Shown here: in pieces, positions 1-15,671 of the stretch
Layout of the letters: each line of letters begins with the position of its first letter
How positions within the stretch are numbered: the first letter of the stretch is position 1
DNA from: an uncultured Balneolaceae bacterium
Lineage (GTDB): Bacteria > Bacteroidota > Rhodothermia > Balneolales > Balneolaceae
DNA length: 64,000 nt
NCBI GenBank assembly: GCA_964423345.1
Contig: CAYREV010000007.1
Coordinates: 23,912-87,911, forward strand
Reading direction: 5' to 3'
Program-made: the position numbers and the translations under genes
Notes under the pieces: model-generated
Told to the model about the DNA's origin: nothing
Databases searched by the model: none
The model's input: only the letters and a program-made list of their open reading frames with translations

Positions 1-1940
1 GGCTCATACCGGCGGTTAAGTATCTCTTTCCCGTCTACCACGATGCGAAGGCGTACGGCCGACCGCTCCCGGGAAATCCTGTTATCCGGCCGCCGCATAT
101 GGGGCAAGAGGTTCTCCTGGGAAGGTGCATCCTCAACGTTATTATCCACCGGCCGCCCGGGAAGCGTAAAGGATACCACCAGGCTCGAATCACTTTGAAC
201 CGGCAAGCTGTAGGGAGCCTTGCTAAAGAAGTAGGTCAGAAAACCCAGAACGGCTATCAGCGATAATCCCATTATATACCGGGCCGCTTTGCTTCCCCGA
301 GCCTTCGGCAGCTCCTGTTGCCCCCCATGCTCCCTGAAAGCACGGGCCTCCCGTATAAATGCCGCGGAATCCACCTGGTTAAAACGCAGATAACGAATGC
401 GGGAGGGGTCTGCCTTTTCACTTCTCAGCTCCGGATGCCTCGCCCCTTCCAGGCGCATGCCGGTCCACTTCGTCCCCAGCCTGAAGTCAGGTTCGCTCTG
501 GCAGCCGACAACCAGTACCCTCTCTGCTCCCTTTCTCAATACCCGCTCTATCATAAGCGGATGCACCCATCCCACACAGGGAACGGAGCGGACGATATAT
601 CCCGGCAGCTCTTTGCAACGGCCGGTTTCCTCATCAATTTGGAGCTCTGCCCCGGCCGAAGCCGAACAAATGTAGGCAACATATGCCGAGCCTTCCTCAT
701 CAAGCCTGTTTTCCAGCCATCCGTCCACTTCCCTTCGCACCTCGTTGGGCTGTAGCTGCGGAAAGGATATGCCCGCGGGGTCACAGGCCCCAACGCATAT
801 GCCGCAGGACATACACTTCGAGGGATCGATGGAGGCATAATAGTCACCTCTTTTGATATCTCCCTCTTCCCTGCGCAACATGGTCACAGCATTAAAGGGA
901 CAATCTTTATAACACTGTTCACACCCATTGCACAGTGAGGGGTCGACTTCAGGTTTCGGTGGCTCTTTTTTTACCAATAGCCAGGGTACGCTGATAAACC
1001 CAATAAAACCGACCAACAGTAACAGCCAGAGCATTCCGCCCTCCAGCCGGTCGGTGAAGTAAACGGGAATCATATAAAAATAATCGATGGGCATCGCCTC
1101 CTGCATTTCCAGCATGCGGGCGGGCTTGGTCAGGTCGGCAGGCAGCCAAACCGACATAATACAGAGTGAACCGGTCACGGCCCAGGTCATCGGTTTATTG
1201 GTAATAAAGTTAGCCTTGTTAAGCCGCGACACATGCAGCCACAAGGCAATTCCTATAGCCAGCGGTATCAGCATATGGAAGAAGAAAACCAGGAAAAACA
1301 GCAGGGAGTTGAAACTGTCGTCGGTCAGGAAGGAGCGGCTGAGCGGCTCGGCAAAAATCGGCAACTGGTCCAGCATCCGGGCAGTCCCCACCGCTACCTG
1401 GTTGGCCCTTTCATCCCAGACCAGCCAGTATCCCAGCCAGCCGTCAAACCAGAGTAATGCCACCGCCAGGATGCCGGTAACCCAGGCGAGCCACCTGCCT
1501 CCACCCAGGCGCTTGGCAAAAAACATTTTGAAGGCATGAAAAAGTATAAACAACATGCATGCATCCGAGCTGTAGCGGTGGAGGGCCCTGAAAAACTCCC
1601 CTGCCGGATTCATATGCAGCAGGGAATCGTAGGCCTGGTACACACTCGGCTTATACCATAACAGCAGGACAAATCCGGAGACCAGGGCAATCACAAAAGT
1701 AAGGTTGGCGATAGCACCCGACTGGGTAAAGGGGTTGAATGCGGGAGACAACACCTTTTCCACCCACTTGTCAAGCCGTTGAAACCACCGGTTACCGATA
1801 TTAAAAAACCATTCAGCCCGAACGGTCGACTCAGGGCACTGCTCTTTTACCCGGCTTTTATAGTCGCCGTTTTTTTTGAATGAGCTGTGGTCGCCTCCGG
1901 CCAGCTCCGCCAGATTAATTTCTTCAGTCAGGGTATTCAT
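1..1940 (-). CDS. Multidomain redox membrane protein, partial (C-terminus lies beyond the window edge): cytochrome b-type di-haem domain + 2x[4Fe-4S] ferredoxin domain + MvhD/FlpD-like domain + extra TM segment
   Basis: The minus-strand frame is open from the ATG at 1940 to position 1. It is absent from the ORF track because it has no in-window stop, so this is my own translation. 'FFRALHRYSSDACMLFILFHAFKMF..RWLAWVTGI' and 'FFFHMLIPLAIGIALWLH' give two His-x13-His pairs, as in cytochrome b helices B and D. 'CNGCEQCYKDCP' and 'CMSCGICVGAC' (about nt 960-800) are two CxxCxxCxxxC cluster motifs. 'YICSASAG...VPCVGWVHPLMIERVLRKGAERVLVVGCQ' resembles the MvhD/FlpD fold but with several Cys missing. 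The start overlaps the stop of the upstream SCO1-like gene (1924-1940). Confidence 0.7.
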   Translation of the reverse strand, partial: MNTLTEEINLAELAGGDHSSFKKNGDYKSRVKEQCPESTVRAEWFFNIGNRWFQRLDKWVEKVLSPAFNPFTQSGAIANLTFVIALVSGFVLLLWYKPSVYQAYDSLLHMNPAGEFFRALHRYSSDACMLFILFHAFKMFFAKRLGGGRWLAWVTGILAVALLWFDGWLGYWLVWDERANQVAVGTARMLDQLPIFAEPLSRSFLTDDSFNSLLFFLVFFFHMLIPLAIGIALWLHVSRLNKANFITNKPMTWAVTGSLCIMSVWLPADLTKPARMLEMQEAMPIDYFYMIPVYFTDRLEGGMLWLLLLVGFIGFISVPWLLVKKEPPKPEVDPSLCNGCEQCYKDCPFNAVTMLRREEGDIKRGDYYASIDPSKCMSCGICVGACDPAGISFPQLQPNEVRREVDGWLENRLDEEGSAYVAYICSASAGAELQIDEETGRCKELPGYIVRSVPCVGWVHPLMIERVLRKGAERVLVVGCQSEPDFRLGTKWTGMRLEGARHPELRSEKADPSRIRYLRFNQVDSAAFIREARAFREHGGQQELPKARGSKAARYIMGLSLIAVLGFLTYFFSKAPYSLPVQSDSSLVVSFTLPGRPVDNNVEDAPSQENLLPHMRRPDNRISRERSAVRLRIVVDGKEILNRRYE

Positions 1941-2937
1941 CTTTCAGATTGAGGTTTACAGAGTGGTTCAATGTCTTTTCCAACGGTGGGGCATCCTCTT
2001 GAACAAGCAGGCGTGTTGCTTTCAGCAGCCATTTCTGCTGTCGGTCTCCCAGCGTAAACCGGTAGGCTATGGTGCCATTTTTGTCAATGAGTATAAAGAG
2101 GTTCGCGTGGTCAATTGCCCCGTCTTCCCTTCTTATCCGGGGAATGTTAAGCTTGTCAAGGATCTCATTGATATATCCCGCTTCTCCCGTCAACAGATGC
2201 TGATTCGGTTCCGTCAACTCATAATGGTCGGCCGTCATTTTAAGCATGTCGGGAGTGTCTTTCGACGGATCCATGGTCAATGCCATCAGCTGTACCTGCC
2301 CGGCCTCCTTCTCGTTCAGTTCAGCAAGCACCTGTTTGGCCTGTTCCAGAATCAGGGGGCATGTTTCGGCACACGAGGCGTAAACCGCGGTAAGCATTAT
2401 CACATTCTCTCCCCTGTAATCGTCCAGCGAAATGTATTCCTTGTGCTGATTGACCAGCGTAAATGAGGGCGGACTAAATTCTGTCCTCAGGCTCTCGGCC
2501 GGAAACGGTAGTTCCCCTTCACTTTTCAACGAATAAAATGAGGGAAGGGTCAACCCCACGCCCAAAACTAAAACCAATGCCAGGCAGACAGCCGGCAAGG
2601 CAGGCGTCCACCCCTCTTTCAGTAAATCCGAGAGAGGGCGATACCAAAAAATTATTACAAACGTACTGAGGATGGCGGGCTGAACGATAAACATAGCCAG
2701 GTAGATAGACTCGATCTCACCCGTGGCCGGATCATAGCCCAGGCACCAGGTTTTAAACTCCTCGGCAAAAGCACCCAGGGTGGAACCGGAAACCGGGATC
2801 ATCGAAACCGCCAGAACCAGAACGGCAAAAAAGAACAGTACCGAAAGCATGAAAACGGGAAAGCGCCACGAGGAAAAGAAAGCTTCCAGGGAATATAGGA
2901 GATGCTTTGCCTGTTCTGTAGATGGGTCTTTCTTCAT
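1924..2937 (-). CDS. SCO1/SenC-family copper chaperone (thioredoxin fold) fused to an N-terminal polytopic membrane domain
   Basis: 337-aa ORF. The C-terminal half carries 'VIMLTAVYASCAETCPLILEQ' (the CxxxC motif of SCO1/SenC) and 'LMALTMDPSKDTP'. The N-terminal ~150 aa contain 3-4 hydrophobic helices. It lies directly downstream of HCO subunit I. Confidence 0.8.
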   Translation of the reverse strand: MKKDPSTEQAKHLLYSLEAFFSSWRFPVFMLSVLFFFAVLVLAVSMIPVSGSTLGAFAEEFKTWCLGYDPATGEIESIYLAMFIVQPAILSTFVIIFWYRPLSDLLKEGWTPALPAVCLALVLVLGVGLTLPSFYSLKSEGELPFPAESLRTEFSPPSFTLVNQHKEYISLDDYRGENVIMLTAVYASCAETCPLILEQAKQVLAELNEKEAGQVQLMALTMDPSKDTPDMLKMTADHYELTEPNQHLLTGEAGYINEILDKLNIPRIRREDGAIDHANLFILIDKNGTIAYRFTLGDRQQKWLLKATRLLVQEDAPPLEKTLNHSVNLNLKDEYPD

Positions 2938-3088: not shown

Positions 3089-4816
3089 TCAACGAACGAA
3101 CCAAAGGTCAGCCAGGGCTTTCCAGTTGGCGAAATAGTAGATGGCGAAAGTCAACAGGAATATAATTACGACCGTCATGGTTCCGGGCGTTTTTACATGT
3201 TCGTAATCTTCGCCTTCCTCCTCATAGCCCTTCTCAATCAGCTCATCCTTCAGGCGGGTGGAATTTTCGTCCTGCCAGCTTTTCATCGGCTGTCCCTCAT
3301 TGGAACGTCCGAAGAACACCGCTGCAACCACCAGCCCGACAAAGAGCAGCAGGCCGAGGAATGCCAGTATCCCTCCAATTCCGACCAGCCCGAGCATGAC
3401 ATGGGCAATGGGATCAAAACCGGAATCAAGGATGGAGCCGCTGAAGTCGATATCATAGTGACGGCGCGGAACTCCATAGGAACCGGCGAACGACATACCC
3501 ATCGACATGATCACGATACCTCCTCCGAAAAGGTAGGGCTGTATGCGCGCCCACTTCTTAAGATAGAACTCGCGCTGGAATATGAGCGGCACCAGGTAGT
3601 AGGCCAGCCCCATGAAAGCGAGAGTGGTCCCTCCAACTACCGTTGCATGGAAGTGTCCGGGGATCCTGAGCGTGTTATGAGCAATAATATTGATCTGTTC
3701 GGTACCCAGCGTAACCCCGGTAATGCCTCCGATAAATCCGAAGATGACAATGGATAGCAGAATGGCCGAAAAGCCCGGGTCTTTCCATGGAAGTTTTGCG
3801 AACCATCCGAAAATACCCTTGGTAAAACCTTTACGGCGCTGTGCCACCTCAAGAGATGCGGGAACCGTATAGCCGTGAATCATGGAGGCCAATACCGCAA
3901 GATACATGGCATAGGAGGTGTTCCAGATTTTCCATCCGGCACCTACACCCGGATCCACCAGCAGGTGGTGGGCCGAAGCCAGGTTTATAAAAAGAATATA
4001 GAGCACGAAAGCCCCGCGGCAAACCGTTTGATTCAGGGGTTTGGCCCCCGTTGTCATCGTAGCCATGAAATACCAGACGGCAACCATGGCACAAACATTA
4101 ATCTGCTGTGACATATGTCCGAGTCCCCACCAGAGCAGGCGGTAAAGTCCGGGATCGTACGACTCGATCCACCCCATGGACCAGAAATAGGCGGGTACCA
4201 GGGCAGCCGCACCGTGAAGAAGCGCCAAAACCGCTATGATAGCCGCGGCGGCCGCACCGAAAGTTACCAGGGGCATCGAGCCCTCGTAGGTTTTATCCCG
4301 CTTGGCTATATAGAGGGTGGCAAAAAAGTTAAAACAGACAATCAATGCCCCGACGGCAAAGAGGATGATCCCCAGGTAAAAAAGCGGATGCGCTTTCAGC
4401 GGTACGTAGGACGTCATCAGCACATCGGCCTGTCCGGCAAGGATGATATAATTGGTCAATACCGCCCCAATAGTCATCAGCCCCAGTGAAAGGTGTGCCA
4501 GCTTTTTAGAAAACAGGCGACTGTTCAACAGGCTTGTGCTTGCGAAATAGAGGATGCCCATCTCCATGAAGATGATCCAGAAGACCAGCATATTGATCCC
4601 GTGGAAGGTCAACATACGGTAGTACCAGACGCTGTCGAGCAGGTGGACGGCCGTCCAGCGGGTCAGGGCCAAACCGATAGCGGCTATGGCGCCGAGCAGG
4701 AGAAAGACAACGGCTAATACGGCATTCGCCCGCACGAAATACTGTGCGTTTAGAAATACCCGAAGACCGGTAGTAGTACAGGTTCTGAACTTGGCTAAGG
4801 CTTGTGTAGCTTTCAT
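3089..4816 (-). CDS. Haem-copper oxidase superfamily subunit I, B-family (ba3)-like but lacking the cross-linked tyrosine; putative NO reductase of the eNOR/sNOR type
   Basis: 575-aa polytopic protein. Ligand set: His72 'LTFHGINM', His234 'WWGLGHMSQQ', His283/284 'SAHHLL', His388/390 'PGHFHA'. Gln238 sits at His+4, where ba3 has Tyr237. The gene lies next to a CuA subunit II and a SenC gene, in a nirK/azurin/Rrf2 context. Confidence 0.85.
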   Translation of the reverse strand: MKATQALAKFRTCTTTGLRVFLNAQYFVRANAVLAVVFLLLGAIAAIGLALTRWTAVHLLDSVWYYRMLTFHGINMLVFWIIFMEMGILYFASTSLLNSRLFSKKLAHLSLGLMTIGAVLTNYIILAGQADVLMTSYVPLKAHPLFYLGIILFAVGALIVCFNFFATLYIAKRDKTYEGSMPLVTFGAAAAAIIAVLALLHGAAALVPAYFWSMGWIESYDPGLYRLLWWGLGHMSQQINVCAMVAVWYFMATMTTGAKPLNQTVCRGAFVLYILFINLASAHHLLVDPGVGAGWKIWNTSYAMYLAVLASMIHGYTVPASLEVAQRRKGFTKGIFGWFAKLPWKDPGFSAILLSIVIFGFIGGITGVTLGTEQINIIAHNTLRIPGHFHATVVGGTTLAFMGLAYYLVPLIFQREFYLKKWARIQPYLFGGGIVIMSMGMSFAGSYGVPRRHYDIDFSGSILDSGFDPIAHVMLGLVGIGGILAFLGLLLFVGLVVAAVFFGRSNEGQPMKSWQDENSTRLKDELIEKGYEEEGEDYEHVKTPGTMTVVIIFLLTFAIYYFANWKALADLWFVR

Positions 4817-4836: not shown

Positions 4837-5361
4837 TTATTCGACAATGATTTTACCGGTCATCATATGGTGCCCGATGCCGCAAAATTCGTTACATATG
4901 ATATCAAAAGTCCCCGTAGTGGTGGGAGTCATGGTCAGCACATGATCGTAACCCGGAAGGATGTGGAAATTCATGTTCATCGGCAGCAGGGAGAAACCAT
5001 GCTGCAAATCGGGTGAAGAGATATGTATGCGATAGGTCTGATCTTTTTTAAGTTTCAGAACAGGATACCAGTTCCACATCTTTCCAACCAGGTAGGCATC
5101 TCCGCCCGGGGCGGGTTCAACGATAGGTATTCCATTCATCTCCCCCACCTTGTTTGTTTCAATGAATCGGTCGGTTCGATCCAGGAAAGCGGCGGCTTCC
5201 ACTCTATAGGATTCTCCCGTACTGTTTTGCTTCCCTTTGAAGTGCCAGTACGGCATGGTTACAGACATGACCAGACACCAGACTAAAGCCAGCCCGACCC
5301 AAAGGCGCTCGGTGCCGGTTGGGGCTTTAAACCAGTTTCCAACAGGATGAAAAATACTCAT
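4837..5361 (-). CDS. HCO subunit II, cupredoxin domain with intact CuA site, single N-terminal TM helix
   Basis: 174 aa. 'DLQHGFSL' plus 'FDIICNEFCGIGHHMMTGKIIVE' gives the H...CxxxCxxxHxxM CuA ligand pattern. It is very similar to ba3 subunit II 'CNQYCGLGHQNM'. It sits 20 nt upstream of subunit I. Confidence 0.85.
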   Translation of the reverse strand: MSIFHPVGNWFKAPTGTERLWVGLALVWCLVMSVTMPYWHFKGKQNSTGESYRVEAAAFLDRTDRFIETNKVGEMNGIPIVEPAPGGDAYLVGKMWNWYPVLKLKKDQTYRIHISSPDLQHGFSLLPMNMNFHILPGYDHVLTMTPTTTGTFDIICNEFCGIGHHMMTGKIIVE

Positions 5362-5390: not shown

Positions 5391-5540
5391 TCAGGGTAGC
5401 GTGGCATCACCCATTGATATTAATTCGATGACACCCCAGAGGGTGTAGGAGATGATGGGAATCAGCAAGCCCAGGGCTAGCAACAGCCAGATGTTGTCCA
5501 GGAACCGCTGTCCTAATGGTTTTTCTTCTTCTGATTTCAT
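5391..5540 (-). CDS. Small (49 aa) single-TM peptide, positional analogue of ba3 subunit IIa
   Basis: My own translation, since it is below the ORF-track size cut-off: 'MKSEEEKPLGQRFLDNIWLLLALGLLIPIISYTLWGVIELISMGDATLP'. It has one hydrophobic helix and fills the gap between the HCO paralogue and subunit II. The order small-II-I matches cbaD-cbaB-cbaA of Thermus. Confidence 0.4.
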   Translation of the reverse strand: MKSEEEKPLGQRFLDNIWLLLALGLLIPIISYTLWGVIELISMGDATLP

Positions 5541-5554
5541 AACGATTATTGTTT

Positions 5555-6988
5555 TTATGTTTGAGGGTACATTCGCTTATTCTTCCAGGCCTTGACCATG
5601 ATCCAGAGAAACAGCAGGCCCCCGGAAACGGCCAGCAGTCCGCCGATAGTCATAATCCCCAGGCCCGCAAATACTTCTATAGAATCGATCTGCTGTTCGG
5701 AACCGAACGATTTTCTGGCCAGTCCGTGGTATCCCGCATAACCGAAACCGGCGGCAAACAGCGCCTGCCCGAATCCAAACAGCAGGGGTTGTATAGCGGC
5801 AAGCTTCCTGCTCCGCCCCCCGGGCAGCCGTATGTCGTGTATCTCCAGCAACAGGTAGGTTACGGCCATAAATGCTACGGTTATCCCTCCCACGGCTGCA
5901 TGGTAGTGGGCCGGAATAAGGGTGTTGGAACCGTTGATCATCGCCCCGAGAATAAAACCGATGGAGGTAAGCAGCATACTGGTGACCAATCCGCCGAAAT
6001 AGGGATTTTTCAACAATCTGCCGGGCAGCTCGCCCTTGCGGCGGGCCCGTACCAAAACGACGATGATCAGAACCATAAAAACCGTGACTACGGGGAATAT
6101 GCCCCATTGCATATACCGGGTAAAACCGGAATGGTATAGCATGTTGGAAGTCCCTTTCATCGTGAGCAGCGGGGCTGCCAACACCGGGAGCGTAAAAAGG
6201 GCAAACAGGATGGCCGACCATCGATAGGGTATGGGATTTCTTTTAAGCAATTTGCCCAACAGGATAATCCACACCGACAGCATGGCTGCCACATTCACAA
6301 ACTGAAGCAGGTGCCCCCCTCCCCAGATGGTCAGCTCGTAGTAGGTTTGATCTGACAGGGTTTGGGGTGTGGCAAGCCAGGAACCGAAGAAGGTTACAAA
6401 GCTGACAATCAGCAGAATGGCCGCCGATCGAAAACCGGGCAAAGAGGAATCAGGAAACGCCCTTTCCATAGGGCGGCCGCTCGGAATGGCTGAAATACGG
6501 GAGTTCAAAACCGTACACAATACCCCGGCACCGAATATTAAGAGACCCCCGATAAAAAGAGGATGGTCGAGGACCGGTATATAATTGGACAAGACCGGTT
6601 CCACCCCGGATACAAATATGGAACTGACCACCATGCCCACTCCCGTGACCGCCAAAGCGTATCCCAGCGGGAGCAGCCTGTTGCTTTTCCCGGCGGCGGG
6701 TACCAATACAAAGAGTCCGCACAGAAATGCATATATCCAGATCAGCAGGGCCAGGTCTACATGGACCACGAGTCCCCTCTTGGCAAAAAGAGGGTCAGAA
6801 ATCAGCTCACTGATGAAAGGTGCCCTTGCCAGGACAATGATTATCGAAAACAGGCCCGACAGAAGCAGGGTCCCTATACTCAGGAAAATCCAAAGCCGGG
6901 AGAGGGTCTTTGACTCAATCCCGGCATGATCAACCCAGGACGCTACCGGGAACATTAATATTTTTTTTACCGCTGCTAACAATAGCAA
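5555..6988 (-). CDS. Divergent HCO subunit-I paralogue that retains the haem ligands but lacks the CuB His-His pair
   Basis: 477 aa. It is clearly paralogous to the 575-aa subunit I: 'NYIPVLDHPLFIGGLLIFGAGVLC' vs 'SYVPLKAHPLFYLGIILFAVGALI'; 'WGGGHLLQFVNV' vs 'WWGLGHMSQQINV'; 'IPAHYHAAVGG' vs 'IPGHFHATVVGG'. The helix VII segment 'LFALFTLPVLAAPLLTM' aligns with 'LYILFINLASAHHLLVD', so HH is replaced by AP. The track start is TTG at 6988; an in-frame ATG lies at 6955. Confidence 0.75.
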   Translation of the reverse strand: MLLLAAVKKILMFPVASWVDHAGIESKTLSRLWIFLSIGTLLLSGLFSIIIVLARAPFISELISDPLFAKRGLVVHVDLALLIWIYAFLCGLFVLVPAAGKSNRLLPLGYALAVTGVGMVVSSIFVSGVEPVLSNYIPVLDHPLFIGGLLIFGAGVLCTVLNSRISAIPSGRPMERAFPDSSLPGFRSAAILLIVSFVTFFGSWLATPQTLSDQTYYELTIWGGGHLLQFVNVAAMLSVWIILLGKLLKRNPIPYRWSAILFALFTLPVLAAPLLTMKGTSNMLYHSGFTRYMQWGIFPVVTVFMVLIIVVLVRARRKGELPGRLLKNPYFGGLVTSMLLTSIGFILGAMINGSNTLIPAHYHAAVGGITVAFMAVTYLLLEIHDIRLPGGRSRKLAAIQPLLFGFGQALFAAGFGYAGYHGLARKSFGSEQQIDSIEVFAGLGIMTIGGLLAVSGGLLFLWIMVKAWKNKRMYPQT

Positions 6989-7006
6989 TCACCATCCTTT
7001 GTTTTC

Positions 7007-7319: not shown

Positions 7320-7760
7320 ATGCATTTACCCCAGACTGCAGAATACGCCCTCAGGGCGATGGCATGTATCGCCCTGAAAAAAGATGAACGCCCGGTAACA
7401 TCGAAGGTACTGGCAGAGGCTACAAACATTCCCAGTCATTACCTGTCCAAAATCATGCGGAAAATGGTTGAAGCAGATCTTGTTACATCAAAAAAAGGAC
7501 ATGGCGGCGGTTTCCAACTGGCCCAATCGCCCGGGGATATCACCTTCAGGATGATCCTGGAGACGGTAGATTATGAAATAGAACCGGAAAGCTGTGTATT
7601 CGGATGGGAAAAGTGCAACAACGATGATCCCTGCCCCCTGCACAATACCTGGAGCCAGCTCAAGGATTCCTTTCACTGGTGGGCCGAAAACGTGACCCTT
7701 CAGGACGTTATAGACCACCCCGGGGAAACCGAACTTATCTTAACTCCCGGCAACGACTGA
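7320..7760 (+). CDS. Rrf2-family transcriptional regulator with three-Cys Fe-S motif (NsrR-like)
   Basis: 'MHLPQTAEYALRAMACIAL', 'IPSHYLSKIMRKMVEADLVTSKKGHGGGFQLA' (winged helix), and 'CVFGWEKCNNDDPCPLH' (three clustered Cys). It is divergent from the HCO operon and close to nirK. Confidence 0.85.
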   Translation: MHLPQTAEYALRAMACIALKKDERPVTSKVLAEATNIPSHYLSKIMRKMVEADLVTSKKGHGGGFQLAQSPGDITFRMILETVDYEIEPESCVFGWEKCNNDDPCPLHNTWSQLKDSFHWWAENVTLQDVIDHPGETELILTPGND

Positions 7761-7789: not shown

Positions 7790-8287
7790 ATGAACCTGTA
7801 CTACCTTTCCGTCTTTATCCACATAGTATCGGCAATCTTCTGGATTGGGGGCATGCTGTTTACCGCAGCCGTACTGGTGCCCGCCTCCCGTGATAAGCTC
7901 CTGAGAAATAAAAAGGGAGCCTTTTTTACGCTTGTGGGGGTCAAATTCAGCAGGCTGTCATGGATCTTGTTTGCTGTTTTATTCATTACGGGAATAACCA
8001 ACCTGCTGGCCCGCGGCTTTCACCTGCAGGACTTTGTGTCGGCACCATTCTGGCAGAGCGGGCTCGGAGATGCCCTGGCTGTCAAACTGCATCTGTTTGC
8101 GGTTGTACTGGTAATAAGTGGCATTCATGATTTCTATGCCGGACCAAAGGCGGCCGAACTCATTGACCGGTCCCCCGGCAAACCGGAGACTCGCCGATTC
8201 CGTAAGCTGTCCAGCTGGCTGGGCCGCATCAACCTGTTACTGGGACTGGCAATCCTGTATTACGCCATGAAAATGGTCCGCGGTTAG
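7790..8287 (+). CDS. CopD-family-like four-TM membrane protein
   Basis: 165 aa with four hydrophobic helices. The N-terminal 'FIHIVSAIFWIGGMLF' motif resembles the CopD/HemJ-type 'H..aa..W.GG' helix. It lies 29 nt downstream of the Rrf2 gene and is probably co-transcribed. Confidence 0.45.
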   Translation: MNLYYLSVFIHIVSAIFWIGGMLFTAAVLVPASRDKLLRNKKGAFFTLVGVKFSRLSWILFAVLFITGITNLLARGFHLQDFVSAPFWQSGLGDALAVKLHLFAVVLVISGIHDFYAGPKAAELIDRSPGKPETRRFRKLSSWLGRINLLLGLAILYYAMKMVRG

Positions 8288-8304: not shown

Positions 8305-9567
8305 TTACTTCACAAACTGCGGATGGATGGAGAGCATCACCCAAGCCCAGGACTGAAGTCCGTCGGCATCCACACCGCGAAGCGTTTCCATTGATCCGGA
8401 AGGCGAAAGCAGGGAATATCCCACCTTCAGGGAAATATCCGAACTGAAGCTATGCGCCAGGCTGAAATCAATTTCGGAACCCAATCCTTTTTCCAGGATT
8501 TCGCCGGGCACCGTCGGGTTCACCGCCGCTTCCGCCAGTGCAAAATAGTGGTAGGTCAGTGATATGTTGGACGCTGATCCCCTTTTGTACACGGCCTGCA
8601 CATACAGGTCCTGAAGTCCCCCGAAACGGCTGTCGGCCGGCACGTTCAGGAAATAATCCATATGCCCGTAGAACTTGTGGTTGGTGGCATACAAGGTGTT
8701 AAAGGCGTGGCGGCGTGGATTGGGGTCGTCGGCCCCTCCTCCCGAGAGGTAATCGTAGCCGGCAGACAGGTGGAATGCATCCAGCTCATATCCGGCTTTT
8801 ACCGCATACATATAGGCCCTTATATTTTCCCTTGTGGCATCATCCCCGCTTTGAAGGTAAACGGTCCCTGTTGTATGAATTCCGTTAAGCCGGTACTGGA
8901 GATGGGTCCCGTAGGTATAGCGAAACTTGACCGATCCCGACGGCCGTTCAAAACCATCGGTTATTCCGATAAAGGATGCCTGGAAGTTTTCCCACTTTTT
9001 TTGCAGCCATATATATGTCAGGACCTTGTAGTTTTTAAGCGTATACGTATTACCCAGCAGGTTTTGTGCCTCCTGGTTATAGGCTCCTCCCAGGTCCAGG
9101 CTAAGCCTGCCATCCCCCTTGCGAAGCTTCAACACCAGGGCATCATGGCTGCGTCCCTGCTGGGTCCAGTTGACACTTCCCAAGAGGCGCTGGTCGTCAT
9201 AGATCAATTCCTGGCGGCCCATTTTGATTGCTGATGCATCGGCTACCTTTACCTCTGCCCATGCTTCGTGAACATTCACATTGGGTGTGTCCCCAAGCTG
9301 TTCTACTTCCCCCCAGACCCTTACATCCTGGCCGGACAGTTTTATTTTGTACAGTTCCGTTTGATACCGGAGGCTCAGGCGCGCCCGTTGGGATATAAAA
9401 AATGCCGGCTCCACATCGGCGGTTTTCATAATCCTGTACCCGTTACGATATTCAGATCGGGGCCTGAACTCCCCCTCCACACTCAATTGAGCCTTTGTGG
9501 TGGCAGGTAAAACCATCAGTAAACAGCAAAGAACAAATAAACGGCTAACGGCTTTGTAAAAATTCAT
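8305..9567 (-). CDS. Outer-membrane beta-barrel porin (alginate-export-family-like)
   Basis: 420 aa with signal peptide 'LLMVLPATTKAQ'. The N-terminal 'EGEFRPRSEYRNGYR' motif and alternating beta-strand pattern resemble Alginate_exp-type porins, which are often found next to N-oxide genes. Confidence 0.5.
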   Translation of the reverse strand: MNFYKAVSRLFVLCCLLMVLPATTKAQLSVEGEFRPRSEYRNGYRIMKTADVEPAFFISQRARLSLRYQTELYKIKLSGQDVRVWGEVEQLGDTPNVNVHEAWAEVKVADASAIKMGRQELIYDDQRLLGSVNWTQQGRSHDALVLKLRKGDGRLSLDLGGAYNQEAQNLLGNTYTLKNYKVLTYIWLQKKWENFQASFIGITDGFERPSGSVKFRYTYGTHLQYRLNGIHTTGTVYLQSGDDATRENIRAYMYAVKAGYELDAFHLSAGYDYLSGGGADDPNPRRHAFNTLYATNHKFYGHMDYFLNVPADSRFGGLQDLYVQAVYKRGSASNISLTYHYFALAEAAVNPTVPGEILEKGLGSEIDFSLAHSFSSDISLKVGYSLLSPSGSMETLRGVDADGLQSWAWVMLSIHPQFVK

Positions 9568-9603
9568 GTCTTGAGAGATTTTAAATTGAAATGCCTATAC
9601 ATA

Positions 9604-9641
9604 AAACCGGGGGAGCCGTACTTAAACAACTCCCCCGGTTT
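9604..9641 (-). terminator. Intrinsic terminator downstream of the azurin-like gene
   Basis: A 10-12 bp GC-rich stem, AAACCGGGGGAG / CTCCCCCGGTTT, followed on the minus strand by TTTTAT. Confidence 0.6.
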
Positions 9642-9671
9642 CTTAAGATGGAAAGCCCTTAGTTCCGATAA

Positions 9672-10151
9672 CTAAGTTGCCTCCCTTTTTACAGTCAGGA
9701 TACCTTTCATACCGCCCGAATAGTGGCCCGGGAAGGTACAGATGTATTCGTACTCGCCCGGTTTGTCGGGAGCCGTAAAGGTAACCTCTACGGTTTCCCC
9801 TCCTCCGGCCAGGCCGGTATAGGCCAGGATCTGGTCCTCCATATCCGGTGCGATATATTCGTTGTCGGATGCTCGTGCCGAGGCGATAGCCACAGCAGTT
9901 GCATCCGCATCGGATTCCAGAAGAACGAAGTTGTGGGCCATAGCCACTTTCGGAAAGTCGCTGACCGTAGTCAGTTTAACGATGACCTTCTGGCCCGGCA
10001 GGACTTCGATATTAGTGACCGTAAACTTCAACTGGTTGGTTCCCTCCATTTCGATGACTTTGACGGCCGGGTTATCGGCCAGCCCGACCTGGGCTATTAA
10101 CAGCATCGGTAACAGGAGTAACAGTGATTTTATTTTTTTGATCGTTTCCAT
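9672..10151 (-). CDS. Azurin-like blue copper protein (cupredoxin), secreted
   Basis: Signal peptide, 'AMAHNFVLL' (His ligand), and 'YICTFPGHYSGGMKGILTV' (Cys-x2-Pro-Gly-His-x4-Met, as in azurin 'CTFPGHSALMKG'). Confidence 0.85.
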   Translation of the reverse strand: METIKKIKSLLLLLPMLLIAQVGLADNPAVKVIEMEGTNQLKFTVTNIEVLPGQKVIVKLTTVSDFPKVAMAHNFVLLESDADATAVAIASARASDNEYIAPDMEDQILAYTGLAGGGETVEVTFTAPDKPGEYEYICTFPGHYSGGMKGILTVKREAT

Positions 10152-10200
10152 GGTTGTATTCCTCTTGGATTATTTAATTATAAATTCAGTATTCGATTAA

Positions 10201-11331
10201 TTACTTGATGTCGGCATCAAAGATGTCCGGGCGTTTCTTGCCTTCCACATTGATGATACCGAGCATGCCTTTATGGGCAACCCTGCTGAGGGCGTGGTCG
10301 ACCAGCTTGACCGGTCCGGGTACGGGGAAATCCATTTCAAAGATGCCGCAGCTTCCCGGTGCCACATGGCAGGTTTGCACATATCGTTCCGGCTTGCTGG
10401 CAATGGCCCCTTCTCTCCAGGCTTTGGTGAATACATTGCCGATGGGGTGGAAATTGCTGGTCACATTCGGCCCGCCGGTAACCAGGTAGATACGCGCGGT
10501 CTCGCCGGTTTTGACATTGAGCGCTCCATACCGGTTGTCGGTGATGGCCTGGGATTCGCCGTTCAGCAGTACATAATTTGGATTTTCATCGATCATGGCC
10601 TGCGTATTGAAAAGGTGCATACCCTTCTCTCCCGCTTCCCTGTTGGTATATACCTCGTGCTGTCCGAAGTAGAACTCGTGATCTACCGGGGGAAGACCCT
10701 CTTCGGGCTCTACCAGTATCATGCCGAACATTCCGCTGCTGATGTGGTAGTCCATGCGTGGGACCGCACAGTGATAGATGAAGGCTCCGGGGTACATCGC
10801 CTTGAATTTCAGCTTGGTGGATTGGCCGGGAGGGCACAGGGTGGCTTCGGCTCCTCCGCCGGGGCCATAAACCGCGTGGAAGTCCACGTTGTGAATCATG
10901 GTATTTTCAGAGAGGTTCTTATGGGTCAATATTACCGTATCGCCCTGGCGTACACGCACCATGGGGCCGGGTACCTGCCCGTTGTATGTGAGATACTTGA
11001 ACTTGACGCCGTCTTCGATTTCGGCGATGACCTCCCGGCTTTCGAGCGTGATCTCATGGATTTTGGGCTTTCGGCGCTTGATCGGCCCGGGGATGTCGGT
11101 AGGATCGGCGGCAACCCGCTGAACCGTGGGAATATTTAGCATGGAAGCCGGGGTGAAATCGCCCGCCTTGCCAACTTCTTTGGCCTGCCCCACCTTGGGG
11201 AACCCCATGCCGGCCAGGAACCCGCCTGAGAGCAGGGCCGCGCCCGTGTTTCTCAGAAACCTTTTTCGAGACTGGGTAGGCTTGTCGTTAACGGCAGTGA
11301 TTTGATCGGAAGTATAATTTTTGCTTTCCAT
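10201..11331 (-). CDS. nirK: Copper-containing nitrite reductase NirK with Tat signal
   Basis: 'RKRFLRNTGAALLSGGFLAGMG' twin-arginine leader; 'HNVDFHAVYGPGGGA' and 'YHCAVPRMDYHISSGMFG' type-1/type-2 Cu ligand motifs; 376 aa two-cupredoxin size. Confidence 0.92.
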   Translation of the reverse strand: MESKNYTSDQITAVNDKPTQSRKRFLRNTGAALLSGGFLAGMGFPKVGQAKEVGKAGDFTPASMLNIPTVQRVAADPTDIPGPIKRRKPKIHEITLESREVIAEIEDGVKFKYLTYNGQVPGPMVRVRQGDTVILTHKNLSENTMIHNVDFHAVYGPGGGAEATLCPPGQSTKLKFKAMYPGAFIYHCAVPRMDYHISSGMFGMILVEPEEGLPPVDHEFYFGQHEVYTNREAGEKGMHLFNTQAMIDENPNYVLLNGESQAITDNRYGALNVKTGETARIYLVTGGPNVTSNFHPIGNVFTKAWREGAIASKPERYVQTCHVAPGSCGIFEMDFPVPGPVKLVDHALSRVAHKGMLGIINVEGKKRPDIFDADIK

Positions 11332-11355
11332 CTTATCGGAGTGTTTTATTCGAAT

Positions 11356-11375
11356 TATAGATTTAATTGTCTATA
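11356..11375. promoter_or_regulatory. Operator-like palindrome TATAGA-N8-TCTATA between the putative nirK promoter and the nirK start
   Basis: It has the same architecture (6-bp arms, 8-bp spacer, ATAGA/TCTAT core) as the two sites at 7007-7059. It lies 25-45 bp upstream of the nirK ATG. Confidence 0.35.
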
Positions 11376-11399
11376 GATAATTTTGTCTACTAATAGTAA

Positions 11400-11415
11400 T
11401 TCAATAGTCATGCCA
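11400..11415 (-). promoter_or_regulatory. Sigma-54-like -24/-12 element (TGGCAT-N5-TTGAA) facing nirK
   Basis: The minus strand reads TGGCAT GACTA TTGAA. The GG and the spacing are correct, but the -12 element is TTGAA rather than TTGCA. It lies about 70 bp upstream of the nirK ATG and about 115 bp from the TTGCA-N4-TGCAA palindrome pair. This geometry matches the stronger yceI promoter. Confidence 0.3.
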
Positions 11416-11519
11416 AACCCCTGTATTGCATAAAATTCTTTTTAAAAAGCTGCTCATCACCTTTCAGATGGGAAATATGATCGGGCATTAAATGCTGGAA
11501 AGAGCATGTGAAACGGGAG

Positions 11520-11578
11520 TATTGCAGAATTGCAATACCGCGAAATCTGGAATCTGGCAGATTTGCAATCCTGCAAAT
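11520..11578. promoter_or_regulatory. Pair of TTGCA-N4-TGCAA palindromes (candidate enhancer/UAS for a sigma-54 activator)
   Basis: TATTGCA-GAAT-TGCAATA (11520-11537) and ATTTGCA-ATCC-TGCAAAT (11561-11578). Both have perfect 7-bp arms, and their centres are 41 bp apart. Confidence 0.5.
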
Positions 11579-11768
11579 AGGTGTTATAGCCCCCCCTCCT
11601 ATCTATAAAAGTTCAGATACCCGGATTAGCATTCGTTACCCTCCCGATTTGACATGCCATACATACATTTTCAAAAAAACAGTTAATAGAACAGGTTCCA
11701 GTTTGAAATAAAGTTAGATTATTCTACATTATTTAATAATTAAGATAAAATAGTATTAAATATTATAT

Positions 11769-13859
11769 ATGGACATGAATGGCCCAAATTCCGCTCCCGA
11801 AAAACGATGGTCCCGTCCCCTTGTGATCCTCGTATCGGCGTTTCTGCTGTTTGAAACCATTACCGGCCTGCTGATATACTTTCTTCCGTTCAGTATCAGC
11901 AACCAGATGATGATCCTTGTCCACACCGGCATTGGGATCGCATTCTGTATCCCCTACCTGGTGTACCAGGTACAACACTGGCTCAGTCAGCGCCAACGAC
12001 CGCTCAGTGAAATCAAGCTTACAGGGTACATCTCCATGTTCGCTGCCCTGGCAGCCGTCATATCGGGACTGGTCCTTACATGGCAGGCCCTGTTTGAAGT
12101 CCGTATCAGCTATACATGGGACAAGATCCACCTGTTCTCTACTTATGTGCTGCTGGCCTCACTGCTACCACATATTGTGCTCATTGTCATACGCGACTAC
12201 AAGGCACGCAACAATCCGGTGATGAAACCGGTGATCGAATCCGAAAAGAATTTCGGCATAAGCAACCTCTTTGCCGTGCTTGCACAATTTGCGCTGGTAT
12301 TACTGCTTATATATGCTTTTGAGCCGACTCCCGTCGATAATAGCCTTCCCGAAGATTACCACTATACGGACGAAAGCGGCGACCGGCCCTTTGCGCCCAG
12401 CCTGGCAACCACCGAAAACGGCGAGGGCATCGATGACCTGCTGCTGGGAAAATCGGAAACATGCAGCAGTTCGGGATGCCACGAACAGATCGGAAAAGAG
12501 TGGGAGGCCAGCGCTCACCGCTACTCGGCTATGGACCCGGCTTTCCGGGCCGTCCAGACCGCCATGGGTAATCAGGAGGGACCCATGTCTACCCGTTATT
12601 GCGGTGGTTGCCACGATCCCATCTCCCTGTTTTCCGGAACCAAGAACCTGTTCAGCGACAGCCTGACCAATAAGATGGGCATGGACGAAGGGGTCTCCTG
12701 TGTCTCCTGCCATGCCATCAAGCAGGTGGATGTATCAGGAAATGCCGATTATGTGATTGCACCGCCCGAACGCTATATCTTTGAACTGAAAGACGGTAAG
12801 ATGGCCAAACTGATCAGTGATTTTCTGATTAGGGCCTACCCCCAGAAACATATCGACACCTTCCAGCGGCCACTGCTGAAAACTCCGGAATTCTGCGGAT
12901 CCTGTCATAAACAGTTTATAGACGAAGAGATCAATAACGTCGGATGGGTACAACTGCAGAACCAATACGACAATTGGCGTAAGAGCCGGTGGAATCATCC
13001 CAAAGAACCCACAAAAACCATTCAGTGCCGGGAATGCCATATGCCCCTCACAGATTCCTTTGATCCTGCCAGCGGGGACGATTTGGATTACAACCGTACC
13101 AAGGACGACGGGAAGCACCGGGACCATCGATTCCTCGGAGCCAACCAGCTGATACCCACCCTGCTGGACCTGCCGGGAGCCGAAGAGCACGTCAAACTCA
13201 CCGAAAAATGGCTAAGGGGTGAAATAGAGATTCCGGAAATCGCCGACAAATGGCGAACCGGGCCCGCAGTGCCCATCAACATTGTTGCTCCGAGAGAGAT
13301 AACCGCAGGCAATGACCTTGAGATAAGCATTGTCATAAGCAACAACAAAACAGGACACCACTTCCCCACCGGACCGCTCGATATCATTCAATCCTGGCTG
13401 GAGATTGTGGTGACAGATCAGGATGGAAACGAGATATTCACTTCCGGAACCCTGGACGAAAATAATTTTATCGAACCCGGCTCCTTTATTTTTAAAGCCG
13501 AACCGGTAGACCAGTACAATAATGTTATCGACCGGCACAACCTATGGGAAATGGTGGGCGTACGATACAGCCGGGCCCTCTATCCCGGCCATTCCGATAA
13601 CGCCGACTTCCGGATACCCCTGCCCGATTCACTGGGCCGGAAAAGCAGTGTTTCCATGAACATACCGGGCGACAAGCTCAACACCGATAAACACCAAACC
13701 ATTTTGAATATCAGTGCCCGTCTTCAGTACCGGAAAATAAATCAATACCTGATGAATGCGGTTTTCGGCAATACCTACGACAACCCCACCGCCACTGTTA
13801 CTACGATTTCAAGCGACCGGGCCGATGTAACCGTACTGAAAACAGACGCAACCTATTAG
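11769..13859 (+). CDS. Membrane-anchored multihaem cytochrome c (N-terminal ~5-TM domain + periplasmic domain with five haem-binding motifs)
   Basis: 696 aa. The N-terminal ~190 aa hold five hydrophobic helices with several His. Haem motifs are 'CSSSGCH' (CX4CH), 'CGGCH', 'CVSCH', 'CGSCH' and 'CRECH'. Confidence 0.8.
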   Translation: MDMNGPNSAPEKRWSRPLVILVSAFLLFETITGLLIYFLPFSISNQMMILVHTGIGIAFCIPYLVYQVQHWLSQRQRPLSEIKLTGYISMFAALAAVISGLVLTWQALFEVRISYTWDKIHLFSTYVLLASLLPHIVLIVIRDYKARNNPVMKPVIESEKNFGISNLFAVLAQFALVLLLIYAFEPTPVDNSLPEDYHYTDESGDRPFAPSLATTENGEGIDDLLLGKSETCSSSGCHEQIGKEWEASAHRYSAMDPAFRAVQTAMGNQEGPMSTRYCGGCHDPISLFSGTKNLFSDSLTNKMGMDEGVSCVSCHAIKQVDVSGNADYVIAPPERYIFELKDGKMAKLISDFLIRAYPQKHIDTFQRPLLKTPEFCGSCHKQFIDEEINNVGWVQLQNQYDNWRKSRWNHPKEPTKTIQCRECHMPLTDSFDPASGDDLDYNRTKDDGKHRDHRFLGANQLIPTLLDLPGAEEHVKLTEKWLRGEIEIPEIADKWRTGPAVPINIVAPREITAGNDLEISIVISNNKTGHHFPTGPLDIIQSWLEIVVTDQDGNEIFTSGTLDENNFIEPGSFIFKAEPVDQYNNVIDRHNLWEMVGVRYSRALYPGHSDNADFRIPLPDSLGRKSSVSMNIPGDKLNTDKHQTILNISARLQYRKINQYLMNAVFGNTYDNPTATVTTISSDRADVTVLKTDATY

Positions 13860-13872
13860 AAGTTTATTCAGC

Positions 13873-15669
13873 ATGTCCAGAAGAAAAAAACGAATTCTCT
13901 ACACCTCCCTCTTTTCAACTGCCATATTTCTGCTGGCCGGCTGGCACATTTGGGAAGATGATGAAAGGAAAATCTACCTGCCGGGAGAAGAAGTACAGGG
14001 CGTAACCACTCGCCTGAACCGGGAGATCCCCAAAGACTTTAATGCTTTCACCTTTAGCGATGTTACGGACAAGTCGGGTATCGACTTTACCCATTTCAAC
14101 CACAGGAGAAGTTCCCGGCTTCCCGAGGACATGGGTTCCGGGCTCGCCTGGTTCGACTATGATAACGACGGATGGGACGATCTGTTCCTGCTTAATTACT
14201 CTCTTCCCCTGGGTGATCAACATAAAGATCCCGATCAGACTCCGTCCAGAAGCAAACTGTACAGGAACAACGGGGACGGTACTTTTACGGATGTAAGCAA
14301 ACAGTCGGGCTTGGACCTGGCGGTCAGGGGAATGGGCGTAGCTGCGGCCGACTACGACAACGACGGGTGGACCGACCTCATTATAACAACCTACGGAACC
14401 AACCGCCTTATGAAAAACAACGGAGACGGAACCTTTACAGATGTAAGCAAGGAAGCGGGCATCGATTTCGGACCGGGCTTCTGGGCCGGGGCATCGTGGG
14501 GGGACTTCAACCGCGACGGAAATCCGGATCTTTATATTACGGGGTACGTCAAATTTGAAGATTTCGACTTGTCGGGCGAGAAACTTGCGGTTGAGGAACC
14601 GCCCAGCATCAATCCCTCCTCCTTTCTTCCCGAACGCAACCTGTTATATCAAAATAACGGGAACGGAACTTTTACAGAAATATCCCGCCAGACAGGTACG
14701 ATCAACGCTACCGGGCGCAGCCTCTCGGCCTCTTGGGTGGATGTGAATAACGATTTATGGCCCGACCTGTATGTGGCTAATGACGTCTCCGACAATATCT
14801 TATATCTCAACAACGGCGACGGTACATTTAGCGATATTAGCCATACCGCCCATGTGGCCGACTACCGGGGGGCCATGGGGCTGGCTACCGGCGACTGGGA
14901 CGGTGACCTTGACATGGATCTTTTTGTGACTCACTGGATCGCCCAGGAAAATGCGCTTTATACCAACCGCCTGCGCGATACCCTGCAGTCGTCTTCCGGA
15001 AGGCTTCGTTTCAAAGATGATTCGGCCAACCATGGCCTGGGACAATCCTCGCTGGATTTCGTGGGTTGGGCAACGGCTTTTACCGACTTCGACCTGGATT
15101 CGCGGCCGGATATCTTTATAGTCAACGGCAACACCATCCAGTATCCGGACAATCCCGAAAGACTAAAACCGATGACCGACCAGATATACTGGAATGCCGG
15201 AGCCAAACGAGGTTTTTACGATGTCTCAAAATTAAGCGGCTCCTATTTTGCCAAGGAGTTTGTCGGGCGCGGCGGTGCATATGCCGACTTTGATCATGAC
15301 GGAGATCCCGATTTGGCCATCATCAACCACGGTGGCAAGGCTGTATTGCTCGAAAATAATCAACATAGCGGAAACCATTGGCTGAGCATCAGGCTGGAAG
15401 GCACCGAAAGCAATCGTTCGGCCATAGGTGCTCATATTCGCATCACCACGGCAGAAAAAGTACAGGTGAAACAGGTGGGTTCCCAAAGTTCCTATCTCTC
15501 GCACAACAGCCTGGAACAACATTTCGGTTTGGGCAAGCACCGCAAAGTGGATACCCTGGAAATCAGGTGGCCCGGGGGTAAAATTGATACCTTCCCGGAT
15601 ATCAAGGCGAATCAGGTTCTGATCATAAAAGAAGGATCAACTGAATCATCCATCATGGCAGTCAATTAA
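13873..15669 (+). CDS. CRTAC1-family protein (FG-GAP/VCBS repeats + ASPIC/UnbV C-terminal domain)
   Basis: Repeated 'DYDNDGW.DL' / 'NNGDGTFTDVS' FG-GAP-type calcium-binding repeats. The C-terminal 'AIGAHIRITTAEKVQVKQVGSQSSYLSHNSLEQHFGLG' is typical of ASPIC/UnbV. Confidence 0.85.
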   Translation: MSRRKKRILYTSLFSTAIFLLAGWHIWEDDERKIYLPGEEVQGVTTRLNREIPKDFNAFTFSDVTDKSGIDFTHFNHRRSSRLPEDMGSGLAWFDYDNDGWDDLFLLNYSLPLGDQHKDPDQTPSRSKLYRNNGDGTFTDVSKQSGLDLAVRGMGVAAADYDNDGWTDLIITTYGTNRLMKNNGDGTFTDVSKEAGIDFGPGFWAGASWGDFNRDGNPDLYITGYVKFEDFDLSGEKLAVEEPPSINPSSFLPERNLLYQNNGNGTFTEISRQTGTINATGRSLSASWVDVNNDLWPDLYVANDVSDNILYLNNGDGTFSDISHTAHVADYRGAMGLATGDWDGDLDMDLFVTHWIAQENALYTNRLRDTLQSSSGRLRFKDDSANHGLGQSSLDFVGWATAFTDFDLDSRPDIFIVNGNTIQYPDNPERLKPMTDQIYWNAGAKRGFYDVSKLSGSYFAKEFVGRGGAYADFDHDGDPDLAIINHGGKAVLLENNQHSGNHWLSIRLEGTESNRSAIGAHIRITTAEKVQVKQVGSQSSYLSHNSLEQHFGLGKHRKVDTLEIRWPGGKIDTFPDIKANQVLIIKEGSTESSIMAVN

Positions 15670-15671
15670 AT

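Follow-up and report, generated by a model that had tools for sequence, protein, structure and literature searches.

HCOx, a widespread paralogue of haem-copper oxidase subunit I that lacks the CuB/FeB site and accompanies eNOR-type nitric oxide reductase genes

The first gene of an operon in a 64-kb window of DNA from an uncultured Balneolaceae bacterium (assembly GCA_964423345.1, contig CAYREV010000007.1, positions 23,912 to 87,911) encodes a 477-residue paralogue of subunit I of the haem-copper oxidase (HCO) superfamily; the label HCOx was coined in this analysis for the paralogue and for its family. The gene, at 6988..5555 of the window on the minus strand, encodes a functional member of an essentially undescribed family within a known superfamily. 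Its conserved residues support the view that HCOx can bind two haems but cannot form the canonical three-histidine CuB/FeB site. Judged by its sequence affinities, the family arose through duplication of a subunit I of the eNOR type of nitric oxide (NO) reductase, such as the one encoded just downstream. Tentatively, and with considerable reserve, HCOx may be read as a subunit I derivative that binds haem and acts as an assembly scaffold, relay or redox helper, and not as an NO or O2 reductase.

A substantial proportion of the NO reductases in the environment, and thereby of the sources of N2O, is reported to be of the eNOR type (PMC11214002). Many eNOR operons begin with an additional gene that matches the one for subunit I in size, and here the literature has a gap: a second subunit-I-like gene goes unmentioned in the main text of the study that defined eNOR, sNOR, gNOR and nNOR (PMC11214002). 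Surveys that rely on COX1 matches would count HCOx genes as oxidases or NO reductases.

Sequence, fold and origin of HCOx

The open reading frame (ORF) of HCOx is intact, with 477 codons and a TTG start; the identical database protein (P0001) is annotated as two codons shorter, at 475 residues. BLASTP aligns HCOx with the adjacent 575-residue subunit I (3089..4816, minus strand) at 27% identity over 465 columns (E 1e-21). A scan against Pfam found no family besides COX1 (PF00115), which matches HCOx at 55.4 bits, above the cut-off of 34.8 bits, and places it within the superfamily fold. The AlphaFold2 model, built with 55 homologues (mean pLDDT 93, pTM 0.93), consists of 12 transmembrane helices and a short N-terminal helix, and its top Foldseek matches in the PDB are subunit I of the aa3, ba3, bo3 and cbb3 oxidases, with TM-scores of ~0.65-0.74. 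These results confirm an earlier note on this DNA, which had described HCOx as a paralogue of the adjacent subunit I. The shared blocks quoted there are all present, and His76, His226, His286, His361 and His363 lie exactly where it had located them, the other histidines of HCOx being at 21, 142, 384 and 421.

Sequence searches of solved structures with the HCOx protein and with the family profile gave no HCO match. No match to HCOx was obtained in an NCBIfam scan, and NCBIfam has no model for the family. The HCOx hidden Markov model scores eNOR subunit I at 172 bits and matches neither any HCO chain in the PDB nor A-type COX1, which argues that HCOx is a derivative of the eNOR lineage and not a deep branch of the superfamily. 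The closest relatives of the HCOx encoded in the window are ~74% identical to it, so that synonymous sites are saturated.

Ligands retained and lost across the family

Conservation was assessed in an alignment of 255 HCOx homologues, reaching down to 27% identity. H76, H226 and H361 are kept in all 255, and H363 in 254. The bis-histidine set of the low-spin haem and the proximal histidine of the high-spin haem are both present, since H76, H361 and H363 correspond in the alignment to H72, H388 and H390 of subunit I. The predicted sites thus comprise a low-spin haem ligated by H76 and H363, a second haem with proximal His361, a single distal His226 accompanied by Gln229, and propionate anchors R425 (254/255) and K426 (253/255). 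Almost as constant are M293 and W222 (254/255 each), Y362 (253/255), Y136 (252/255), Q229 (250/255), E218 (241/255) and T290 (239/255), and the whole signature R55-H76-Y136-E218-W222-H226-Q229-P268-P273-T290-M293-H361-Y362-H363-R425-K426 is retained down to the lowest identity sampled. By their depth in the helices, M293, T290 and E218 may line the former CuB cavity. R55, which aligns with R53 of eNOR, presumably matches the arginine hydrogen-bonded to the formyl group of haem a in aa3 oxidases; we take this as a lead only.

The three-histidine ligand set of CuB/FeB is represented in HCOx by H226 alone. Helix VII, where the other two would be expected, is aligned differently by different methods: BLAST sets H283/H284 of subunit I opposite A272/P273 of HCOx, whereas profile-profile alignment shifts the helices by ~5 residues and sets H284 opposite P268. 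Neither places a histidine there. Adjacent histidines occur anywhere within residues 250-300 in only three of the 255 homologues, never at the homologous position, and 119 have no histidine in this interval at all, which makes the loss of the pair family-wide and independent of the alignment. The earlier note had proposed this loss and had named, as findings that would overturn it, a conserved histidine pair hidden in orthologues or a decaying gene; no such pair exists among the 255 homologues. Tyr285 and His286, whose invariance it had proposed to check, are not invariant: Tyr285 occurs in 182 of the 255, and position 286 is variable (R in 104, Y in 48, H in 41). Its wider claim, that the protein could bind two haems yet lack a canonical CuB/FeB site, stands as to the ligands and anchors, which are conserved, and as to the two second-metal ligands, which are missing throughout the family; actual haem binding is predicted from these residues.

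Loss of two canonical metal ligands is what might be seen in a decaying duplicate without function. Such an explanation has next to no probability, and the conservation of the family excludes it: HCOx occurs in many phyla as full-length ORFs with conserved synteny and independent domain fusions, and ~48 positions are invariant in a 55-sequence alignment.

The eNOR operon of the window

By its sequence, the 575-residue protein encoded downstream of HCOx is of the eNOR type. It matches the ba3 subunit I of Thermus with E ~1e-45, and all six metal-binding histidines (H72, H234, H283, H284, H388 and H390) are found in that alignment. Its Gln238 occupies the site of the cross-linked Tyr237 of ba3 (GHMSQQ versus GHPIVY), where Tyr characterizes oxygen reductases, Asn sNOR, Glu cNOR and qNOR, and Gln eNOR (PMC8756737, Table A4). 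The K-channel analogues S311/H314/T317 are conserved in eNOR subunit I.

All genes of the operon are on the minus strand, tightly spaced, and HCOx is the first of them, as had been noted earlier. It is followed by an ORF for a 49-residue peptide with a single transmembrane helix (5391..5540; MKSEEEKPLGQRFLDNIWLLLALGLLIPIISYTLWGVIELISMGDATLP), a CuA cupredoxin subunit II with the motif C-x-E-x-C-G-x-x-H-x-x-M (4837..5361), eNOR subunit I (3089..4816), a SenC/SCO1 copper chaperone identified by Pfam, with N-terminal transmembrane helices (1924..2937), and a fusion of a cytochrome b N-terminal domain to two [4Fe-4S] ferredoxin motifs and an FlpD/MvhD-like domain (1..1940), of which 646 residues are visible before it runs off the start of the window. 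The start of this last gene overlaps the senC stop by 17 nt. Homologues of the 49-residue peptide, 48-57 residues long, are encoded at the same position before subunit II in six other operons (loci L081, L082, L085, L086, L087 and L092); in ba3-type enzymes the additional small subunit has a comparable place, and the peptide is probably a small subunit of eNOR.

Two copies of the palindrome AATAGA-N8-TCTATT (7007-7026 and 7040-7059) lie just upstream of the HCOx start, and a gene for an Rrf2-family (NsrR-like) regulator, recognized by Pfam, diverges from the operon (7320..7760, plus strand). These two are the only matches to the palindrome in the window, against 0.21 expected. The same palindrome precedes the first operon gene in nine related loci of Balneolaceae, Gemmatimonadota and Rhodothermales (L001, L006-L009, L011, L018, L053 and L081), one of which, L081, is an eNOR operon without HCOx. 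It is presumed to be a candidate operator of the divergent regulator. A divergent Rrf2 gene is found within 2.5 kb in 27 of 72 assessable HCOx loci. An Rfam scan of positions 1-8000 of the window found nothing.

In the norSY-senC-orf1 arrangement of nitrifiers and Bacillus, orf1 (CbaD) follows senC as a gene of ~570 bp for a protein of ~190 residues with six transmembrane helices (PMC3475470). HCOx was considered as a counterpart of orf1 and rejected, having 477 residues, 12 transmembrane helices and the COX1 fold. An sNOR identity of the adjacent enzyme fails as well: the diagnostic residue is Gln, as in eNOR, and not Asn, as in sNOR.

Distribution, synteny and rate of evolution

A first homologue search returned 649 HCOx matches, and clustering the relatives of HCOx at 50% identity gives 1,602 clusters with E <= 0.001 and, among them, 687 with E <= 1e-30. 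HCOx is present in the genomes of at least 594 species, from taxa that include Balneolaceae, Myxococcota, Planctomycetota, Verrucomicrobiota, Spirochaetia, Calditrichota, Gemmatimonadota, Acidobacteriota and Pseudomonadota. Gene order was surveyed in 80 genome loci anchored on HCOx, 68 of them with enough downstream sequence to be assessed. Subunits II and I follow HCOx in the same order and on the same strand in 59 of these 68, the common order being HCOx, 49-residue membrane peptide, CuA subunit II, eNOR subunit I, SenC and the cytochrome b-FeS-FlpD protein. The last of these, ~700 residues long (for example L029:12948-15104), with an N-terminal cytochrome b domain of the di-haem type, ends the eNOR operon, and its gene is found downstream of that for SenC in 55 of the 80 loci. 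Related cytochrome b-FeS genes have been noted in an eNOR operon of Ferrigenium (2026 preprint).

Of five operons sampled from the eNOR side, three have HCOx (L082, L086 and L087), two lack it (L081 and L083), and each carries a cytochrome b-FeS-FlpD gene. From these gene contents, HCOx appears to be dispensable for eNOR in some lineages; the eNOR of Rhodothermus marinus, reported as an isolated enzyme that reduces NO (PMC11214002), may be a further instance, its subunit composition not being given in the main text. The rate at which HCOx evolves is likewise that of an accessory factor: compared with the proteins of the window, HCOx has a median identity of 42% and SenC one of 41%, much lower than the catalytic subunits II (68%) and I (67%).

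The tight operon linkage suggests that HCOx could be a permanent structural pseudo-subunit, forming a heterodimer with eNOR subunit I that it only stabilises, with its haems as fold-stabilising cofactors. The loss of its catalytic residues and the presence of a single CuA subunit II per operon, which it would share with the true subunit I, would fit such a partner. We consider it very unlikely, given that some eNOR operons have no HCOx, that copies standing alone or outside eNOR contexts retain the whole signature, and that the invariance of H226, Q229 and M293 would go unexplained.

Comparison of HCOx with eNOR subunit I

A 119-sequence eNOR subunit I profile was compared with the HCOx profile. 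eNOR subunit I is the nearest relative of HCOx by sequence and has the same fold, operon, haem ligands and Arg-type propionate anchors. Common to the two (eNOR/HCOx) are R53/R55, the helix II His, W80/W84, Y137/Y136, W230/W222, the helix VI His, Q237/Q229 (at the position of ba3 V236), W248/W240, the H-x-H motif and R451-R452/R425-K426, so that both have the Trp at H-4 and the Gln at H+3. In contrast, H283/H284, Q238, S311/H314/T317, H380, E85 and E323, which are 100% conserved in eNOR, are not conserved in HCOx, and neither is K296, also invariant in eNOR. The K-type proton path is absent from HCOx, where S311/H314/T317 of eNOR (S309/T312/T315 of ba3) face non-conserved R, Q/R and I. The residue at the position of ba3 Y237, which is the diagnostic Gln238 in eNOR, is F230 in HCOx (F in 148, V in 48 and L in 21 of the 255 homologues), and eNOR H380, at the position of ba3 H376 near the a3 propionates (the proton-loading His), has been lost. 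HCOx is also ~100 residues shorter than eNOR subunit I and lacks its extra C-terminal helix. Duplication of an eNOR-type subunit I would have been followed by loss of two CuB/FeB histidines, the Gln/Tyr position, the cytoplasmic K-type path and the proton-loading histidine.

Two further differences were observed. The invariant Arg226 in helix VI of eNOR (the Arg at H-8 in ba3) is replaced in HCOx by Glu218, ~95% conserved, a swap of charge that could mark a remodelled ion pair on the periplasmic side. D288 of eNOR has no conserved counterpart in HCOx.

The pocket that remains might still be reactive. HCOx could be a haem-only enzyme, or a binder of NO or O2, with a five-coordinate haem on His361 facing a pocket of His226 and Gln229 and fed by the low-spin haem; NO would be bound or turned over (by cis-haem reduction or NO dioxygenation) or O2 scavenged, with protons taken from the periplasm and without charge separation across the membrane. 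The invariance of His226, Gln229, W222 and Y136 (at the position of ba3 Y133) speaks for such a pocket, as does the location of the operon behind an Rrf2/NsrR-like operator with genes for NirK and a cupredoxin nearby. Against it, every catalytic or proton-path residue that is invariant in eNOR, apart from the haem ligands, is gone from HCOx, and HCOx evolves much faster than catalytic subunits do. To our knowledge, there is no precedent for efficient reduction of NO or O2 by an HCO without a second metal. A haem-only reactive HCOx, which would represent a new type of active site in a very well-studied superfamily, is in our estimate rather unlikely.

Other members of the superfamily have also departed from the canonical histidines: gNOR and the NO-dismutase-like relatives of qNOR resemble HCOx in that active-site His residues are not conserved (PMC11214002). 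In gNOR, one His is replaced by Asp, the metal site is kept and the protein is a catalytic subunit (PMC11214002), whereas HCOx has lost two His without a conserved substitute ligand and has a complete catalytic subunit encoded beside it.

HCOx beside electron carriers and nirS

HCOx is also found outside the standard operon, and the members in all of the contexts described here and in the next section retain the full signature. In seven loci where HCOx stands alone, the adjoining gene encodes a small electron carrier instead of a CuA subunit II: class II cytochrome c in L002 and L004, class I in L039, L043, L057 and L058, and a cupredoxin in L047. A class I cytochrome c gene also adjoins the operon-linked HCOx of L027. 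In L084 (2-2287), an HCOx domain is fused to an N-terminal cytochrome b domain directly upstream of a putative nirS, identified by eye from its sequence and with tblastn relatives in other loci. Both kinds of association would suit the reactive haem-only protein considered above, which would leave unexplained the fusions to TPR repeats in Ccs operons, the A-type cox assembly clusters and the coupling to CtaA and CtaB described below.

They would also suit a di-haem electron relay. In the absence of CuB, His226 may coordinate the second haem as its sixth ligand, so that both haems would be bis-His-ligated and lie close to the periplasmic face. Electrons would pass between a membrane donor, either quinol or the cytochrome b-FeS-FlpD protein, and a periplasmic carrier, which could be the CuA subunit, a cytochrome c, a cupredoxin or NirS, providing a feed to eNOR that does not depend on bc1. 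Such a relay accounts for the retention of one of the three CuB histidines; it is further favoured by the presence of a periplasmic redox protein in every HCOx context, by the fusion to a cytochrome b domain, by the cytochrome b-FeS-FlpD gene in the same operon, and by the retained Arg/Lys pair, where electrons from CuA enter in canonical enzymes. However, the cytochrome b-FeS-FlpD gene is independent of HCOx, being present also in eNOR operons that lack it, no conserved quinol-site residues were identified in HCOx, and the two haems lie at equal membrane depth, so that no transmembrane wire is possible. The links to CtaA, CtaB and Ccs would also be poorly explained. A role of HCOx as electron relay seems doubtful.

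HCOx among genes for haem and cofactor handling

A further set of contexts involves the supply of haem. HCOx is fused to UbiA (haem O synthase) inside an eNOR operon (P0233, L085:2629-4875); in the same locus, a separate ORF of 48 residues encodes the C-terminal helix of eNOR subunit I. A COX15/CtaA gene overlaps the upstream HCOx gene by 23 nt in L092-L094 (P0267; the gene is on eight contigs, three of which were examined), where the order is small peptide, subunit II, eNOR subunit I, SCO1, cytochrome b-Fer4, HCOx and CtaA. A stand-alone HCOx in L003 lies beside a divergent Rrf2 gene, a HemN-like gene and CtaA. Two A-type cox clusters begin with HCOx: that of L090 (HCOx, DUF2244, coxB, coxA, cox11, coxC, surf1, x, ctaB) and that of L017 (HCOx, SCO1, caa3 genes, ctaB). 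Distant members of the family are fused to C-terminal TPR repeats (L089:4233-6239 and L088:324-2324). In L089 the fusion comes directly after ResB and CcsA, components of System II cytochrome c biogenesis identified by Pfam matches, in a locus that also encodes a decahaem cytochrome c; the gene after the fusion has a putative CcmI/CycH-like N-terminal motif, read by eye. The partial ORF upstream of the fusion in L088 is ccsA-like by eye only (a WGxxWxWD-type motif).

Replacement of haem A synthase by HCOx at first seemed attractive, with CtaA in 1 of 91 loci and UbiA in 28 of 85. It was rejected as a rule, HCOx overlapping a genuine CtaA gene in L092-L094, which together with L003 are the only loci with CtaA among those examined. 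Co-occurrence with CtaA (L092, L003) and with Surf1 (L090) argues that HCOx is no simple substitute for either.

The recurrence of HCOx with haem O and haem A synthases, with Surf1, Cox11 and SCO1, and with haem-handling genes of System II favours a haem-servicing role, and most contexts point towards the servicing of haem cofactors for periplasm-facing respiratory enzymes as their common denominator. That HCOx is itself no NO or O2 reductase is indicated by the loss of catalytic and proton-path residues, by its accessory-like rate of evolution and by its being optional among eNOR operons. In the reading that we tentatively favour, HCOx would be a haem-loaded accessory protein serving the maturation of such enzymes, acting as a haem-binding scaffold or relay and possibly as a redox helper. 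Its pockets would be the bis-His low-spin site of H76 and H363 and the site of the second haem, on His361, with distal His226 and Gln229; its client in the window would be the haem-A(s)-dependent eNOR encoded just downstream, with which it would be co-induced from the Rrf2 (NsrR-like) operator. For comparison, the isolated eNOR of Rhodothermus marinus reduces NO and is reported to carry haem A(s) in both haem sites (PMC11214002). If this assignment is right, HCOx would be the first paralogue of an HCO catalytic subunit recruited for cofactor handling, with a bearing on how haem A enters subunit I and how haem-A enzymes mature at low oxygen.

Several observations weigh against an assembly role. 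All functional evidence comes from gene context, and the links to haem pathways come from a minority of loci, since 59 of the 68 assessable close relatives have just the eNOR structural genes and SenC nearby. The invariant His226, Gln229 (at the position of ba3 V236, the end of the ligand channel), M293 and T290 resemble a reactive pocket that has been maintained more than they do a passive carrier, and in seven of the nine loci where HCOx stands alone its partner is a small electron carrier of the periplasm (class I or II cytochrome c or cupredoxin); the favoured role leaves both facts unexplained. The carrier pairing and the fusion of an HCOx relative to a di-haem cytochrome b beside nirS are no less compatible with electron transfer or with NO chemistry than with assembly. 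Moreover, the buried haem pockets of HCOs are not obviously suited to passing haem to another protein.

A more specific proposal, which we regard as quite unlikely, is that HCOx is a redox and handling partner in haem A(s) maturation under O2-poor, NO-rich conditions. Its partners would be CtaB, CtaA and the cytochrome b-FeS-FlpD protein; HCOx would accept haem O or A in its ancestral pockets and supply or remove the electrons for making or inserting haem A when O2 is scarce, and its TPR-fused relatives would have an equivalent role in System II. If true, this would explain how a haem-A-dependent NO reductase is assembled in denitrifiers with little or no oxygen.

The pseudo-catalytic partner, sensor, haem-only NO-binding protein and new active-site chemistry listed in the earlier note stay candidate roles, with the evidence tilting against catalysis on NO or O2. 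The idea of a sensor is weakened in that no fused or consistently neighbouring signalling domain was found. That list did not include a part in assembly or haem handling.

Parallels to the proposed accessory role of HCOx

NifEN, a paralogue of the nitrogenase NifDK, holds or matures a cofactor before its transfer. Like HCOx as read here, it is a paralogue of a catalytic subunit, shorn of catalytic features and turned cofactor scaffold; the families are unrelated and the analogy is one of logic only. HCOx may also be likened to CtaA/Cox15 (haem A synthase) and Surf1 (haem A chaperone), which are located in the membrane, use His to bind haem and work at the stage between CtaB and subunit I. HCOx is unrelated to them in sequence and fold, and Pfam finds no COX15-CtaA domain (PF02628) in it; nor does it find an NnrS domain (PF05940), a genuine NnrS being encoded elsewhere in L092. 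The HCOx::UbiA fusion is paralleled by the CtaA-CtaB fusions of some bacteria (PMC9145763).

The eNOR operon of Ferrigenium encodes eNOR II, eNOR I, haem O synthase, Sco1, cytochrome b-FeS proteins and a "scaffold protein" that was detected in the proteome (2026 preprint). This protein, on whose fold and ligands the preprint is silent, is encoded after the cytochrome b-FeS gene, in the position of HCOx in L092, a match by position only. A literature search on the term returned that preprint alone, and the best 120 matches of a homologue search with a proteobacterial HCOx contained no names of Gallionellaceae.

Other genes of the window

Genes for NirK, a cupredoxin, a porin and a multihaem cytochrome are located within 7 kb of the operon. 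This denitrification neighbourhood (8305..16535) comprises an Alginate_exp-type porin, of a type also found after the eNOR operon of L087, a cupredoxin of 159 residues, NirK, an FG-GAP/ASPIC protein, a membrane-anchored multihaem cytochrome of 696 residues with homologous copies in L008, L009 and L035, and a protein of 287 residues that by eye is putatively TPR-like. Between it and the operon, co-oriented with the Rrf2 gene, is a gene for a 165-residue CopD-like/DUF4149 membrane protein (7790..8287, plus strand), possibly linked to copper supply for CuA; the pair that it forms with the Rrf2 gene is conserved in the closest locus, L001.

Further along the plus strand, a 448-residue polytopic membrane protein with the motif RHAHSHLM and no Pfam match (17237..18583) is 33-35% identical to the 421-residue product of L081:9095-10360, encoded directly after the cytochrome b-FeS-FlpD gene in that Rhodothermales eNOR operon; an unannotated gene for 450 residues is found there in L086. 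It is followed by two paralogous mini-proteins of 147 and 138 residues (18719..19162 and 19192..19608, plus strand), 25% identical to each other, with ~4 transmembrane helices. Both have weak, sub-cut-off matches to the N-terminal part of Pfam COX1 (~100-150 positions; E 2.5e-5 and 3.4e-8), and the pair is also present downstream of the eNOR operon in L013 (10455-11002).

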